Shown here piece after piece: positions 2,104 to 53,804 of a stretch of 64,000 nucleotides of DNA. Source of the stretch: Escherichia phage vB_vPM_PD112; the sequence record NC_054928.1, one strand, 5' to 3'. Numbering within the stretch: position 1 is the stretch's first letter; each line of letters starts with the position of its first letter. A program made the position numbers and the translations under genes. Below the pieces are notes generated by a model that had not been told where the DNA came from, did no database searches, and saw only the letters and a list, made by a program, of their open reading frames with translations.

Positions 2104-2253
2104 TTACTGCATGACTGTGATAACTGTCATGATAACGCGTTGAATTCCGAACGCAAGAAGACCTCCTGCTACGGCTGGAACAACACCTAAACCCGCCAGT
2201 AAAATGCCGCCAGATACTAACGCCGCGCTTGTAATACCAATGAATGGACTCAT
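2104..2253 (-). CDS. small hydrophobic protein, 49 aa
   Basis: Hand-translated MSPFIGITSAALVSGGILLAGLGVVPAVAGGLLAFGIQRVIMTVITVMQ; ATG overlaps gene 52 stop (ATGA); not in ORF track. Confidence 0.5.
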   Translation of the reverse strand: MSPFIGITSAALVSGGILLAGLGVVPAVAGGLLAFGIQRVIMTVITVMQ

Positions 2254-3578
2254 TTGATTTCCTCTAAATCTTTGGTGTATTCGGTAACTACATCAGTAGT
2301 TTTCCAATATTCGTTTTCTTCTTTTTTAGCTTTAGCTTCTTCAGCAAGTTTCTTCGCTTCATCGGAAGTCATATGAAAAATATTCATTCCAACTAGTTTA
2401 TCAACATAAGAAGAATACATATCGATTTTCGAAAGTTCTTCGGTCAGTTCTTTACGAGTTTTACCTTGTACAACAATTTCACCTGAAATTACTTTCTTAA
2501 TGAAATGTGCCTTGGCAAAGGCTAAACGAAAAGCTGATTCAGTTTCTTTAATTTTGTTATCAATTCGTTTTTGAACATAAGTTTTACGAACTTCAACAAA
2601 GTCTTTAATTAAATCAACTACGTTATCGTAAACTTGCAGCTTTCCTTTCTCATTAATGACTGTAATATTCTGAGAACGACGCTCAATCAATCCAAAGTCT
2701 TTCATAATTTTTGCATGGCGTTCTTCTTCGTTATCGCTCAAAGAATATTCTTTACGGAATTTAACTTTAAAGCCAAAACCATGCTCACCGCAAGCATCAT
2801 CCCATGTAATGAAGCCTTTATCTTCAAGCGGGTCTAAGATTTTACTCACATAAGTTTCACGATCATACTTATACGGAATCTCAGTGATATTCATTTGAGT
2901 TCGTGAAGTAAACTTGTACGTTCCACGAATTTCATATTGACCGTCAATTTCAACGACTTCACCGCGAAATTCTGGGAATTCTACCTTCGGTTTAGTTACT
3001 TTCTTTCCTTGAAGAGCTTGTAGTACAGCTTTCTTGACAGAAGAAACACTATGAGGAAGAATGTAAGTTGCATAACCAGTTGCAATACCGGAAACACCGT
3101 TAAGAAGAACAGTAGGAATAATAGGCAAATAGAAAGCAGGCGGAATGTGTTCTTTATCTTGATGTACCGGAGCATATTCAGTATCTTTATATACGCTATA
3201 GAAATTTTTACTTACACGAGCAAAAATATAACGACTTGCTGCTGCTTTTTGAACGGTACGAGAACCAAAGTTTCCTTGACCATCTAACAAAGGAAAGTTA
3301 TTATTCCAAGTGTTAGCCATCAAAGCCCCCGCATCTTGTGCGGAGTTTTCACCATGATGATATCCAAGGTCAGCTACACCACCTGCAATAGAAGCGAGTT
3401 TGTGAAACTTATCTTTATTTCCTCGCGCCAAATCAAGAGCTCGAGCAATAACAAATCGTTGAACTGGCTTAAATCCATCAATCATATTTGGAATAGCACG
3501 ATTTTCAACCGTGTACATAGCATAAGCCAGTGCTTCATTATCAATGATACTTTTTAAATCGCGATTATTCAGTTGCAT
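2250..3578 (-). CDS. 52: DNA topoisomerase II medium subunit (GyrA-like)
   Basis: 442 aa, the T4 gp52 length; GyrA-like N-terminal region; ATG start. Confidence 0.95.
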   Translation of the reverse strand: MQLNNRDLKSIIDNEALAYAMYTVENRAIPNMIDGFKPVQRFVIARALDLARGNKDKFHKLASIAGGVADLGYHHGENSAQDAGALMANTWNNNFPLLDGQGNFGSRTVQKAAASRYIFARVSKNFYSVYKDTEYAPVHQDKEHIPPAFYLPIIPTVLLNGVSGIATGYATYILPHSVSSVKKAVLQALQGKKVTKPKVEFPEFRGEVVEIDGQYEIRGTYKFTSRTQMNITEIPYKYDRETYVSKILDPLEDKGFITWDDACGEHGFGFKVKFRKEYSLSDNEEERHAKIMKDFGLIERRSQNITVINEKGKLQVYDNVVDLIKDFVEVRKTYVQKRIDNKIKETESAFRLAFAKAHFIKKVISGEIVVQGKTRKELTEELSKIDMYSSYVDKLVGMNIFHMTSDEAKKLAEEAKAKKEENEYWKTTDVVTEYTKDLEEIK

Positions 3579-48721: not shown

Positions 48722-49004
48722 GAGAAATAATTCCTTGATAAGCCCAGTATGGCGGGTTAACAGAATCATCGCCAGAATTTTCTTCAGGAAAATAAACCTG
48801 GATAACAAATCCAGATGCATCAAAGGTAAAATAAACCGTAGGCAGTTCACCTAACAATTCAGCACGAGCATTAATTTCTTCGAGATCTCGTTCACGTCCA
48901 GCCCAAAAACTAGGATTTAGACTACATTCATAGAAATAATAGTCATTACCGAACATATCAAAACCCTTCCAACTCTCTACCACATATCGCTCAAAACTAA
49001 TCAT
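48693..49004 (-). CDS. hypothetical protein, 103 aa
   Basis: Track ORF, ATG start; its 3-prime end overlaps the redoxin ORF. Confidence 0.5.
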   Translation of the reverse strand: MISFERYVVESWKGFDMFGNDYYFYECSLNPSFWAGRERDLEEINARAELLGELPTVYFTFDASGFVIQVYFPEENSGDDSVNPPYWAYQGIISRGTKLELKE

Positions 49005-49006
49005 AA

Positions 49007-49222
49007 TTAGGCCTTTTTATCAAGAACAGCATTTAGTTTGTTAGTAATTTTATCCAGACGCTCATTGAACTCGCTAGAAGATAGTCCTTTTTCTGGAGAA
49101 ATTAAGCTAATCACGAAAAATATAGCAATAAAAGGAATAAGAAAAATAGCACCAACTGCCATAAACAAAAAGAACGTTACAGTTGTAAGAAAATCAGCTA
49201 AACCTTTACGAAATTTATACAT
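49007..49222 (-). CDS. small membrane protein, 71 aa
   Basis: Track ORF, ATG start; one long hydrophobic span. Confidence 0.5.
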   Translation of the reverse strand: MYKFRKGLADFLTTVTFFLFMAVGAIFLIPFIAIFFVISLISPEKGLSSSEFNERLDKITNKLNAVLDKKA

Positions 49223-49337
49223 ATTTTACCCTTAATTGATTAACCAAGCATTGATAAGCACTAAACTATACTGTGAATAAAATTCTGGACCAAAATGAAA
49301 AATCATATCATTTATAGTATCCATAATGTAATTCAAT

Positions 49338-49808
49338 TTAATCATGTTTCCACACCCCATCGGTATTTGACCAAAGTCGCTGATTATCTGATCCTCGCCA
49401 CAGCTTTTTGGTCGGAAGATTTTTCTCATACTTCCCATCAATAATAACATCAACATATTTAAGCATTTCTAGTTGTTTAATATCTTCAAACTTATATCCT
49501 GTCCACAACCAAATGCTTTTATTGGGATAAAGATTTTTTACTGTTTGAACAATGCAATGAACATCATCTCGGTTATCAGGATAAAGAGGGTCTCCTCCAG
49601 TTATAGTTAATCCTTCTATATAATCATTATTCAAACATTCAATTAATTGTTCTAGTGTTTCACCAGTGAATGGAACGCCATTTCTAGCATTCCATGTTGA
49701 TTTATTATAACACCCTTCACATTTATGCAAACACCCCGTAACGAAAAGAACGACCCTGCATCCAGGGCCATTTACAAAGCAGCACGGGTATATTCTGTCA
49801 TAATTCAT
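49338..49808 (-). CDS. nrdG: anaerobic ribonucleotide reductase activase (radical SAM)
   Basis: 156 aa from ATG (track adds a TTG extension); CxxxCxxC in GCLHKCEGCYN. Confidence 0.9.
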   Translation of the reverse strand: MNYDRIYPCCFVNGPGCRVVLFVTGCLHKCEGCYNKSTWNARNGVPFTGETLEQLIECLNNDYIEGLTITGGDPLYPDNRDDVHCIVQTVKNLYPNKSIWLWTGYKFEDIKQLEMLKYVDVIIDGKYEKNLPTKKLWRGSDNQRLWSNTDGVWKHD

Positions 49809-50047
49809 AATAATATCCAATTTTTCCAAGCTTCATCAGTAGAATTACAGCGTTTTAGTATAAGATGTCTAGAAACTTTTATGGCATTTGAGCACTTTTT
49901 AATTGAATCATATTTTAATAAAGCGGCACGAATCAATGTTCCTGACCCCATATAACCGTCATTTATGTTATCGGTGCTATGCGCACCGATATATTCCTTT
50001 GAATTAATTATATTTGTTATTTTATAAATTATATAATACCTATGCAT
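49805..50047 (-). pseudogene. truncated GIY-YIG homing endonuclease remnant, 80 aa
   Basis: YYIIYKITN...KEYIGAHSTDNINDGYMGSGTLI parallels the SegA N-terminus, then ends with no DNA-binding domain. Confidence 0.6.
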
Positions 50048-51857
50048 GTTTTACTCGTTTTACCATTTCTTTCATTTTACCTAAATTCCATGGAACAACG
50101 CTAGGAGTTCCAAGATATCCGCATGTTCTTCTTATGGTGTTCATCTTTTTAGGATCAGTTTCTCCACAAATAGAACAAACAAATCCGTTCTCGGTTGGAG
50201 TCATTTCATGGGTACTTCCACACGTAAAACATTTATCTACTGGCATATTAACGCCAAAATAATCTAAATGTTGTGCAGCATAATCCCATACAGCCTCAAG
50301 GCCTTTTAGGTTATTTTTCATATCAGGAAGTTCAACATAAGAAATGTGACCGCCTGTCGCGATGAAATGATATGGGGCTTCGCGAGAAATCTTTTCAAAT
50401 GGAGTAATATTTTCTTCTACTGAAACGTGGAAACTGTTAGTGTACCAGCCTTTATCAGTAACATCTTTTACACTTCCATATTTTTCGGTATCAAGTTTAC
50501 AGAAGCGATAGCACAGGTTTTCAGCAGGAGTAGAATACAAGCTAAAAGCAAATCCGGTTCTTTCAGTCCACTGCTTAAGATGAGTATTCATTTTAGTTAA
50601 AATTTCTTGTCCAATATCACGACCGACAAGAATATTCAATTCGTGAATACCAATGTATCCTAGGGACACTGAACTTCTACCATTTTTAAATAACTCAATT
50701 ATATCGTCATCAGGTTTAAGACGAACCCCGAATGCACCTTCCTGGTAAAGAATAGGAGCAACAGTAGCTTTAACTCCTTTTAAGGAACTAATTCTACACA
50801 TCAATGCTTCAAAACATAAATCCATTCGTTCATTGAACAATTCGGCAAATTTCTGTTCATTGAACTGTGTTCCAATATAAGAATCTAATGCAATACGAGG
50901 AAGATTCAGTGTTACAACACCAAGATTATTACGTCCATCAAGAATTTCATTACCAGTCGAATCTTTCCATACGCCCAAGAAACTACGGCAACCCATTGGA
51001 GAAACAGGAATAGATGAACCGGTGATAGCTTTATTGTTCTTAGCCGAAATGATGTCAGGATACATTCTTTTGCTTGCGCACTCTAAAGCAAGCTGCTTAA
51101 TATCATAGTTCGGATCGTCTTTATAAAGATTAACACCTTCTTCAACGAACATAACAAGTTTAGGGAAAATAGGAGTTATCCCATCACGACCGAGACCTTT
51201 AATACGATTTTTCAGAATTGCTTTCTGAATCATTCGTTCAGTCCAGTCAGTTCCCGTACCAAATGTAATTGTTACAAAAGGAGTTTGTCCGTTTGAACTA
51301 AAGAGAGTATTTACTTCATATTCATAAGCTTGGAACGCATCGTATACGTCTTTTTCTGTTTTAGATTGGGCATAATTCAACGCATCAGTGATTTGCCATT
51401 TTTCCGCGTCCTCAATATGTTTCGCATAGGTGCGTTTAACATAAGGAGAAAGTACTTTATCTACATTCGCAAAAGTCGTTCCGCCATATTGATGAGAAGC
51501 AACCTGTGCAGTAATTTGTGCCATAATTGCAGTAGCAACGCCAATTGATTTAGGAGTTTCAATCTGTGCATTACCGAGCTTAAATCCGTTCTCAAGCATT
51601 CCTTTTAAATCTACTAAACAGCAATTAGTAAAAGGCAATGATATACTGTAATCTAAATCATGAAAATGAATTAACCCGGCATTATGAGCATTTACAATAT
51701 GGCTTGGAAGAATACTGCAAGCGATATGTTTAGAAACAATACCGGCCATTAAATCTCTTTTTGTTGGAAAGACACGAGAATCTTTGTTGGCGTTTTCGGT
51801 ATTTAATTCTTTATCTTTATTTGAAATAAAATTTAAAACATCTTTCTCTAAAGACAT
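50040..51857 (-). CDS. nrdD: anaerobic ribonucleotide reductase, glycyl-radical enzyme
   Basis: 605 aa uninterrupted ORF; C-terminal glycyl-radical motif RRTCGYLG and zinc ribbon. Confidence 0.95.
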   Translation of the reverse strand: MSLEKDVLNFISNKDKELNTENANKDSRVFPTKRDLMAGIVSKHIACSILPSHIVNAHNAGLIHFHDLDYSISLPFTNCCLVDLKGMLENGFKLGNAQIETPKSIGVATAIMAQITAQVASHQYGGTTFANVDKVLSPYVKRTYAKHIEDAEKWQITDALNYAQSKTEKDVYDAFQAYEYEVNTLFSSNGQTPFVTITFGTGTDWTERMIQKAILKNRIKGLGRDGITPIFPKLVMFVEEGVNLYKDDPNYDIKQLALECASKRMYPDIISAKNNKAITGSSIPVSPMGCRSFLGVWKDSTGNEILDGRNNLGVVTLNLPRIALDSYIGTQFNEQKFAELFNERMDLCFEALMCRISSLKGVKATVAPILYQEGAFGVRLKPDDDIIELFKNGRSSVSLGYIGIHELNILVGRDIGQEILTKMNTHLKQWTERTGFAFSLYSTPAENLCYRFCKLDTEKYGSVKDVTDKGWYTNSFHVSVEENITPFEKISREAPYHFIATGGHISYVELPDMKNNLKGLEAVWDYAAQHLDYFGVNMPVDKCFTCGSTHEMTPTENGFVCSICGETDPKKMNTIRRTCGYLGTPSVVPWNLGKMKEMVKRVKHA

Positions 51858-52669
51858 AATTCTAATTTATCCTTTTGAAATTCTTCGTCTAAATATGGGT
51901 TCCAACCCATTTTAAACCTTTTGATGAAATTATCAATTCTAAATTTCGGTAAGTTTAAATCCGCAAAAATAGATGATTTACTTTTAAAATCTGGACCTAA
52001 ATAATCATATAAAATTTCTGCGTATTTTAACCATAATATATAAGTACCAGATTTAATTGCTCTCGGAGTTTTCCAAGGTTTTACACCATACATCGGATTT
52101 CCACTTCCTTTATGCCTGATAGAAGATGAAATTCCAATTTTAATTTTAGCTTCCTCTGTATGCGAAAATCCATGATGTGGATTTTCTTTCCAGTATTTTT
52201 TAGAAGCTTCTGATATTTTCTTTCTGGCTAAATTAGTATGATGCTTTCCATAAAATCCATGATTTTTACCTTTATTACGATTTCTTTTAATCATGGTTAT
52301 TGATTGCTTTTTTCTAGTTTCTTTAGAAGGAGAAACACCGTATGTTGTAAATTGACCATTAGCATATGCTAAATTAAAATACTCTTTATTCCATATATCT
52401 TTTTCTATATTCTTTTGAAATTCAGCTTCAATGCTAGTTATTTGCTCATCTCCGACTAATTGAAAATATAATATTTCAACTTTCGGCGTTTCTTTCAACA
52501 GGGCTTTTTGAAATTCGGAAGATGACGAAGACGAATAATAAAATTTACCATTTTTATCAATAATATTCGTTCCGTCAAAAGTGCAATTGGTTTTACTTCC
52601 AATATAATAATACGGCGGGGTTTTAGCATTAATTCTACTAATAAATGATAGTTTATATACTACATTCAT
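51848..52669 (-). CDS. Seg-like GIY-YIG homing endonuclease
   Basis: 273 aa; divergent GIY-YIG (VYKLSFI...PYYYIGSK) and two NUMOD-like repeats (GKNHGFYGKHHT, GSGNPMYG); free-standing between nrdD and 49. Confidence 0.65.
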   Translation of the reverse strand: MNVVYKLSFISRINAKTPPYYYIGSKTNCTFDGTNIIDKNGKFYYSSSSSSEFQKALLKETPKVEILYFQLVGDEQITSIEAEFQKNIEKDIWNKEYFNLAYANGQFTTYGVSPSKETRKKQSITMIKRNRNKGKNHGFYGKHHTNLARKKISEASKKYWKENPHHGFSHTEEAKIKIGISSSIRHKGSGNPMYGVKPWKTPRAIKSGTYILWLKYAEILYDYLGPDFKSKSSIFADLNLPKFRIDNFIKRFKMGWNPYLDEEFQKDKLELCL

Positions 52670-53139
52670 TTTAAACTCTTTCTAAGCTGCTTCTTAAATG
52701 AAGCTATTAATTGTGTTTTGGTGTCAGATTCATTATATTCAAATCCTCTTTGAAGCATCTCAGCCATCATTTCCTCTTTTCCTAAACGAGAAAATTCCTT
52801 TGATTTATCTCCAACGAAGTTAGGGTGAATATTATTTTGGGTGTAATCGGATTTTAAATAAGTAAGTAAATTTTCTAACCATTCAAGATAATCAACGCCT
52901 TGTCCCTTTAAGCCAGAACGATTAAATTTGTGTTTCATTTGACCTTCTGCAGCATTACACAGATTACAAAGCAATCCACGTACCTTTCCAGCTTTCGGTC
53001 CATTTAATTCATGGTCATGGTCAAGGTGATTAGCTTGAACATCAGGATTTAGTTCTCGTTGGCAAATTAAGCATTTACCGTTTTGTGCATTATAAAATTT
53101 TTGTTTTTCTTCTTTGTATAATTTGCCAGTCAATAACAT
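52666..53139 (-). CDS. 49: endonuclease VII (Holliday junction resolvase)
   Basis: 157 aa, the T4 gp49 length; zinc-binding CLIC...C...C and His motif. Confidence 0.9.
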   Translation of the reverse strand: MLLTGKLYKEEKQKFYNAQNGKCLICQRELNPDVQANHLDHDHELNGPKAGKVRGLLCNLCNAAEGQMKHKFNRSGLKGQGVDYLEWLENLLTYLKSDYTQNNIHPNFVGDKSKEFSRLGKEEMMAEMLQRGFEYNESDTKTQLIASFKKQLRKSLK

Positions 53140-53181
53140 AATAAAACCCTTACCTTGAATAGATAAGGGTATTTATTATTT

Positions 53182-53358
53182 TCAAGTATTGTAAAACATT
53201 CGATGCAATCGCTTATATTGTCGAATCATCTTTTTAGTAGGACGAGAATAAGTTCCTACACAAGTGGTCATATTAGGGTCAGTAGGACTTCCTTTAATAA
53301 AAAGTTTCCAGACTTTACCACCATTTAACTTTTCAGTATAAATCAATTCAGTTTTCAT
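53182..53358 (-). CDS. small protein, 58 aa
   Basis: Hand-translated MKTELIYTEKLNGGKVWKLFIKGSPTDPNM...; not in track. Confidence 0.3.
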   Translation of the reverse strand: MKTELIYTEKLNGGKVWKLFIKGSPTDPNMTTCVGTYSRPTKKMIRQYKRLHRMFYNT

Positions 53359-53804
53359 TAAAATGCTCGGTCAGAAAAAGAAATTTGAGTTTCAAGCCAT
53401 TCAATATATTCTGCCGCAGCTTGCATCAAATTTCCTTCATAACCATCGTTATTTTCTTGTGCAGCTAATTTAGCTAATGCATATGAAATACGTTCACCCT
53501 GAAAAGCGGCTTTAGGTTTATGAATAGCTTGATCAACTCGTTCTACGACTTCTTCAATTTCGCCATTTTCTACTGATTCAGTGTTCCACAAGCACCAATA
53601 GGCAGTTGGCTTATCGTAGATGTTAATAATCTTTCCATCAGAAAGTTCAATTTCAATAATTCCAATATCAGGTTCTATATCATCTTCACATTCTTTTACA
53701 AGTTCACGAACTTTAAAGACAGTACCTGCACTAAGTTCCGGCCAGTAATTACACAGCTCTTTATCAGCACGATTAATTCTAAACCACTTATCTACTGCAA
53801 TCAT
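53358..53804 (-). CDS. acidic protein, about 148 aa (possibly pin by position)
   Basis: Track start is TTG, first ATG used; name is from T4 gene order only. Confidence 0.4.
   Translation of the reverse strand: MIAVDKWFRINRADKELCNYWPELSAGTVFKVRELVKECEDDIEPDIGIIEIELSDGKIINIYDKPTAYWCLWNTESVENGEIEEVVERVDQAIHKPKAAFQGERISYALAKLAAQENNDGYEGNLMQAAAEYIEWLETQISFSDRAF

Follow-up and report, generated by a model that had tools for sequence, protein, structure and literature searches.

The nrdD gene of phage T4 is interrupted by a group I intron that carries I-TevII (PMC2988022, Table 1), which raises two questions for the nrdD gene in the 64-kb stretch of phage DNA analysed here (referred to hereafter as the window): whether this gene is truly continuous and, if so, whether its empty site could receive such an intron. 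The preliminary description of this DNA had proposed both, namely a single uninterrupted reading frame and a potential recipient for intron homing. The features on which an answer turns all lie on the minus strand:

49338..49808, minus strand: nrdG, 156 aa when read from the ATG at 49808, encoding the radical-SAM protein that activates NrdD (Pfam Fer4_12, E = 2.4e-48, and Radical_SAM)
49805..50047, minus strand: segH remnant, 80 aa, matching SegH at both ends (46 residues at the N-terminus, 34 at the C-terminus)
50040..50147, minus strand: diverged 3' block of nrdD (CDS nt 1711–1818, the last 108 nt), co-occurring with segH
50040..51857, minus strand: nrdD, large subunit of the anaerobic (class III) ribonucleotide reductase, 605 aa, ATG start, one ORF
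51300..51329, minus strand: empty intron insertion site with flanks (−10 to +20), reading GCTTATGAAT/ATGAAGTAAATACTCTCTTT (the slash marks the insertion point, here and below)
51618..51857, minus strand: diverged 5' block of nrdD (CDS nt 1–240), ~65% identical to T4 and T2
51848..52669, minus strand: seg-like gene for a GIY-YIG/NUMOD3 homing endonuclease of the free-standing kind, 273 aa, lying between gene 49 and nrdD and overlapping both
52666..53139, minus strand: gene 49, endonuclease VII, 157 aa, the upstream neighbour (Pfam Endonuclease_7 and Endonuc-dimeris)

Continuity of nrdD and position of the empty site

Three lines of evidence agree that nrdD is uninterrupted at 50040–51857, as first described: the list of open reading frames, a Pfam match to NRDD (PF13597) that spans residues 21–604 of the product and positions 1–562 of the 562-position model in one stretch (E = 1.1e-170), and an ungapped alignment with spliced T4 nrdD. 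The coding sequence (1818 nt) equals the spliced T4 gene in length and is 89% identical to it at the nucleotide level and ~92% identical in amino acids. The product also matches Gly_radical (PF01228, E = 6.6e-25), and it retains an intact Cys4 metal site (the CFTC...CSIC cluster at residue 543) followed by an intact glycyl-radical motif (RRTCGY, residue 576); a full-length NRDD match, these radical and Cys4 motifs and an NrdG encoded nearby place the protein in class III NrdD. The surrounding region resembles Tequatrovirus (T4-like) phages at 93–97% identity. The orthologous nrdD sits in a neighbourhood shared with T4, from gene 49 (96.9% nucleotide identity between window and T4) upstream to nrdG (471 nt in both phages) downstream.

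The T4 gene itself (NC_000866) is annotated as two joined pieces spanning 2851 nt with the I-TevII gene inside, in agreement with the published table cited above, and the statement in the preliminary description that T4 has such an intron with its endonuclease is correct. Excising 1033 nt after CDS nt 538 of T4 nrdD restores the 605-aa frame; exon 1 then ends in T and the intron in G, which fits the expectation for a group I intron. Mapped by comparison with T4, fPS-2, G8, F26 and Lv5cm, the insertion point in the window falls on the minus strand between 51320 (T, the last base of exon 1) and 51319 (A, the first base of exon 2), the position at which T4 differs by holding its 1033-nt group I (IA2) intron with I-TevII. 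The T4 exon junction reads GCTTATGAGT/ATGAAGTGAACACGTTATTC, with GCTTATGAAT/ATGAAGTAAATACTCTCTTT as its counterpart in the window. The junction of exons 1 and 2 is uninterrupted there (GCTTATGAAT/ATGAAGT... at 51329..51300), and compared with intronless homologues the window has no ~1-kb insert after CDS nt 538. Alignment with T4 nrdD locates the site, finds it empty and reveals no hidden intron of the kind that would have refuted the preliminary description.

A 200-bp probe centred on the insertion site matched 681 records in a phage collection, 610 of which are contiguous across the site, the remainder being split by an insert. Intronless nrdD is the majority state (~90% of sequenced relatives), and T4 is the exception. 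The T4-type intron (1033 nt, with I-TevII) accounts for ~25 records, many of which duplicate T4. A second type (type 2 hereafter, 1045 nt) occupies exactly the same position in 44 full-length records and is further represented by two ORF-deleted derivatives, in BYEP01 (~345 nt) and 215Ecol030PP (~479 nt). The two intron types are 64% identical in nucleotides and their endonucleases 56% identical in amino acids; membership of the group I family RF00028 and the internal guide sequence are common to both. The intronless state alone matters little, being the default of a well-studied system and already known biology: the T4 introns are present in some T-even phages and missing from others, early work on the nrdD (sunY) intron already described such a sporadic distribution, and it was this pattern that first pointed to the mobility of the intron (PMC2988022).

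The allele at the site and its flanks

We compared the site in five intron-carrying and 16 intronless genes, the latter set comprising the window, OES_C-3, T2, T6, ECO07P3 and 11 IMG/VR contigs. All 16 intronless alleles read GAAT/ATGAAGT..., and eight of the first 13 are identical to the window. The base at −2 is A (GAA before the final T of exon 1) in every intronless allele and G (GAG before that T) in every intron-carrying allele compared. The window carries the commonest intronless version, identical from −13 to +37 to those of T2, T6 and ECO07P3; over the wider span of −30 to +40 it shows two to three mismatches to T2 and T6, whose nrdD is likewise uninterrupted and encodes 605 aa. We hold it to be very probable that the window nrdD is an ordinary, functional, intronless Tequatrovirus gene, bearing the commonest intronless allele of a site used by two introns.

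The window and T4 exon junctions differ at seven bases (−2, +8, +11, +14, +15, +17 and +20), all of them synonymous. Since the intronless OES_C-3 shares many exon 1 bases with intron carriers, we restricted the test for co-conversion to T4-private sites, and exon 1 sites −104 to −17 of fPS-2, many of which OES_C-3 also shares, were dropped as evidence. The central 1470 nt of nrdD contain 17 T4-private bases (bases absent from five intronless genes), of which seven cluster at −2 to +20, and fPS-2 and G8 share all seven. Clustering of this degree was reached in none of 200,000 permutations, also when third-codon positions only were considered. The T4-type introns of fPS-2 and G8 are 99.7–99.9% identical to that of T4, and the nrdD backgrounds in which they sit are otherwise window-like. 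When the fused T4 exon junction was searched against the phage collection, no intronless match exceeded 93.5%; the bulk lay at 88.7%, and these bulk matches are the window-type allele. The T4 flank from −2 to +20, with its seven intron-linked synonymous bases, is confined to phages with the T4-type intron (T4, fPS-2 and G8).

Obligatory co-conversion during homing would be the simplest explanation of this T4-specific flank, judging from the three T4-type carriers compared in detail. Bell-Pedersen et al. in 1990 reportedly placed I-TevII cleavage at +13/+15, so that the donor would have to supply all sequence between cut and intron; of the seven differences between window and T4, six surround this reported cut site. 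The seventh, at −2, touches the P1 helix, in which exon AUGAGU pairs with GCUCAU (intron positions 14–19) in both intron types. With the A of the window at −2, P1 would contain an A.C mismatch adjoining its splice-site U.G pair; the helix needs G there, a further reason for this base to accompany the intron. Cuts by intron endonucleases fall no more than 25 bp from the insertion site, and flanking exon sequence is co-converted during homing (PMC2988022). That the T4-specific flank travels with its intron fits such a co-conversion pattern, which would make window-like alleles natural homing targets. The flank of the type-2 carrier F26 lies closer to the window, with three differences from −10 to +25 (seven for T4); the type-2-linked bases at −11 and −8 are missing from the window.

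The empty site as a potential recipient for homing

We infer that the empty site in the window is a potential recipient of the nrdD intron, as had been suggested from the uninterrupted frame; identity of the site with T2 and T6, together with the presence of the fPS-2 and G8 introns in window-like backgrounds, supports this proposal. T2 reportedly served as the experimental recipient in intron homing. Were a relative with the intron to infect the same cell, the GIY-YIG endonuclease of that intron would cut within exon 2, a few bases from the empty junction; the break at the window site would then be resected and repaired from the intron-carrying copy, which would install the intron along with a short donor exon tract, including the G at −2 needed for P1. 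With a donor that lacks the 273-aa endonuclease gene, such as T4, the homology on the 5' side extends over only ~300 nt, and part of the 2004 work of Sandegren and Sjoberg reportedly states that optional flanking genes lower homing efficiency.

A different reading, to which we give a low probability, is that the two intron lineages have diverged in target preference, the window allele being the cognate target of type 2 and one that I-TevII cuts poorly, with the 273-aa gene and its diverged block limiting homing from phages that do not carry them. Were target preferences to have diverged in this way, the nrdD locus would host competing selfish elements that partition the target alleles.

Slightly less probable, in our estimate, is the reading that the window allele is simply a poor or resistant I-TevII substrate, protected by its seven synonymous differences and a realistic target for the type-2 endonuclease only. 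The clustering of these differences around the reported I-TevII cut site would suit such protection, as would the nearly window-like exon flanks of type 2 (the three F26 differences, set against seven for T4) and the fact that distinct phages with type 2 outnumber those with the T4 type; the endonucleases, being only 56% identical, could moreover differ in specificity. The pattern in fPS-2 and G8, however, is the one expected from endonuclease-driven homing into the common-type allele, and the database offers no intronless T4-type allele as an alternative target for I-TevII. Like I-TevI, I-TevII tolerates sequence variation. Its recognition site is long and is bound across the minor groove (PMC2988022), which also argues against protection by a few substitutions.

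A different history, in which the window gene once held an intron and lost it precisely, such that the empty site is secondary and not ancestral, appears very unlikely. The ORF-less type-2 introns of BYEP01 and 215Ecol030PP indicate that intron decay happens in the population, and the neighbouring segH is itself decaying; yet the window shows none of the intron-linked exon bases (it has the common sequence from +8 to +20 and A at −2), nor does it have those tied to type 2 at −11 and −8, its site is identical to that of T2 and T6, and no intron remnant was found in it. A remnant elsewhere in the 64 kb was rejected, the matches being at chance level only: blastn with both intron types returned noise, and tblastn with I-TevII and the type-2 endonuclease returned nothing at E <= 1. 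Rfam at the gathering threshold found no group I intron in the whole 64 kb, and a scan of 49000–53500 with laxer filters found no RF00028 group I core at E <= 1; the sole RNA family match in this interval at that level was a chance-level sRNA outside nrdD. The positive controls for the Rfam scan scored 105 bits (T4 intron) and 70.6 bits (type-2 intron). Because the large gathering-threshold run missed the type-2 control, the local scan and the alignments are the meaningful negatives. A cryptic intron or intein hidden within the nrdD ORF is already refuted by a length equal to spliced T4 NrdD in an ungapped alignment, by the single-stretch Pfam match across the whole NRDD model and by the absence of relevant hits when the region was scanned for RNA families at E <= 1.

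Mobile endonuclease genes around nrdD

Besides the empty site, which we continue to read as a potential recipient of the intron, the surroundings of nrdD, a hotspot of mobile endonuclease genes, hold further mobile elements. Three independent selfish elements meet around the window gene: the intron site, an intact seg-like gene and a decaying segH. This catalogue of elements, together with two by-products of the analysis (a base-exact map of the empty site and the linkage of the T4 flank to its intron), could guide homing or marker-exclusion work. Gene order from gene 49 to nrdG compares as follows:

Window: gene 49, 273-aa gene, nrdD, segH remnant, nrdG
OES_C-3: gene 49, 273-aa gene, nrdD, segH, nrdG
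fPS-2, F26 and Lv5cm: the order of OES_C-3, plus the intron
G8: gene 49, 273-aa gene, nrdD with intron, nrdG
T6: gene 49, nrdD, segH, nrdG
T2 and ECO07P3: gene 49, nrdD, nrdG
T4: gene 49, nrdD with intron, mobC, nrdG

T6 resembles the window in having segH downstream of nrdD, although its copy is full-length where that of the window is a remnant, and T2 differs in having no segH. Both T2 and T6 lack the 273-aa gene and carry a T4-like 5' block of nrdD that is ~65% identical to the window over nt 1–240. T4 has nothing between gene 49 and nrdD, and mobC in the place of the segH remnant.

The window segH copy shares with SegH of RB3, LZ2 and T6 its location between nrdD and nrdG, and it retains a GIY-YIG N-terminus, but it is no longer a complete protein of ~276 aa. 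As defined by alignment to segH of OES_C-3 and T6, an in-frame deletion of 588 bp has removed residues 47–242 of the 276-aa SegH, its junction (49909..49920) lying between short direct repeats TTAAA(A)TATG. The deleted residues hold the catalytic core and the DNA-binding NUMOD3 repeats, and only residues 1–46 of the remnant match PHROG 314. This copy is therefore an inactivated remnant and not a functional member of the family. Full-length genes are annotated as segH in T6 (MH550421), RB3 (AY262138) and LZ2 (AY262139), the RB3 and LZ2 records stemming from the original SegH study of Sandegren, Nord and Sjoberg in 2005. The top-ranked matches listed, from a total of 71 records, are all full-length and none has the deletion; none appears to share it, because an identical deletion would have ranked first. 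The 3' block of nrdD is 97–99% identical to the window in phages with segH, versus 67–71% in those without.

On the other side of nrdD, the 273-aa ORF matches Pfam NUMOD3 (E = 1.1e-8) and PHROG 7504, 'homing endonuclease' (E = 9e-34), and over its N-terminal 126 aa only it is 39.8% identical to T4 SegG; the Pfam GIY-YIG model gave no match to it at E = 0.01. A SegG-like N-terminal GIY-YIG domain with NUMOD3 likens the gene to the seg family, as do its form (a promoterless-looking cassette that overlaps conserved genes and is optional among relatives) and its linkage to a diverged segment of neighbouring nrdD. It differs from SegG in position (between 49 and nrdD, as against 32 and 59 for SegG) and in its C-terminal half, which is unrelated. 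The gene occurs in 48 records and is absent from T4, T2, T6 and ECO07P3, marking it as an optional insertion between conserved genes; we found no experimental characterisation of it in the literature.

The 5' block of nrdD follows this gene closely, with at least 95.8% identity to the window in six carriers of the 273-aa gene versus ~65% in four non-carriers. Over the block, identity reaches 95% or more in only 48 database records and drops to ~75% in the next best, and a database search for a donor of the block found none, the best non-linked match again standing at ~75%. The block is strictly linked to the 273-aa gene, which hints at an endonuclease target within nrdD nt 1–240. Within the framework of PMC2988022, linked diverged blocks of this kind are typical of homing endonuclease genes that are free-standing and arrive with donor flank, and that flank probably contains a cleavage-immune version of the endonuclease target.

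A second group I intron at the T4 nrdD insertion site

The site at which the T4 nrdD intron is inserted, empty in the window between 51320 and 51319, is in 44 phage records the exact position of a second group I intron (referred to hereafter as type-2), which shares 64% identity with the T4 intron and whose endonuclease is 56% identical to I-TevII. More distinct phages carry the type-2 than the T4-type intron, and our literature search found no description of it.

Type-2 intron and apparent derivatives
L005 (phage F26 locus) 2181-3225: type-2 group I intron, 1045 nt; also in L001 (Lv5cm locus)
L005 2252-2387: type-2 core segment, intron nt 72-207, with matches in other phages
OR757453 (BYEP01): apparent ORF-deleted derivative, insert ~345 nt, nrdD insertion site
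PP328843 (215Ecol030PP): apparent ORF-deleted derivative, insert ~479 nt, nrdD insertion site

The BYEP01 and 215Ecol030PP inserts appear to be derivatives of the type-2 intron that lack its ORF and occupy the same nrdD site, which suggests that the endonuclease gene decays within the intron. The core segment finds 80-85% matches in records for phages of E. coli, Campylobacter and Vibrio (mostly of ~140 kb, often with HNH endonuclease genes adjoining the match). Other phage groups probably carry related intron cores.

An Rfam run at gathering threshold over two loci (L003 and L005) missed the type-2 intron, yet a local run by E-value scored it at 70.6 bits, above the gathering score of 50 bits. 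Group I introns can therefore escape a scan of a whole window at gathering threshold.

Endonuclease genes flanking nrdD

Window features, all on the minus strand
49805..50047: segH remnant, deletion junction at 49909..49920
51618..52669: seg-like GIY-YIG/NUMOD3 endonuclease gene (predicted, 273 aa) plus nrdD 5′ block
53138..53204: weak Rfam match to ohsC_RNA, 28.4 bits, E = 0.26
53182..53358: 58-aa ORF between gene 49 and the next gene upstream

The free-standing endonuclease gene segH is reduced to a remnant by an in-frame deletion of 588 bp, with TTAAA(A)TATG repeats on either side, and this deletion is absent from the top-ranked matches listed among 71 segH-matching records. Between gene 49 (endonuclease VII) and nrdD lies an intact gene for the predicted 273-aa endonuclease. 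Its constant companion is a diverged 240-nt block at the nrdD 5′ end, ~65% identical to T4 and T2, for which no donor was found in the phage collection.

Region upstream of gene 49

The ohsC_RNA match, below the gathering score of 50, is probably due to chance. The 58-aa ORF has no counterpart in the T4, T6 or Lv5cm annotations; OES_C-3 carries an annotated ORF at the corresponding position.
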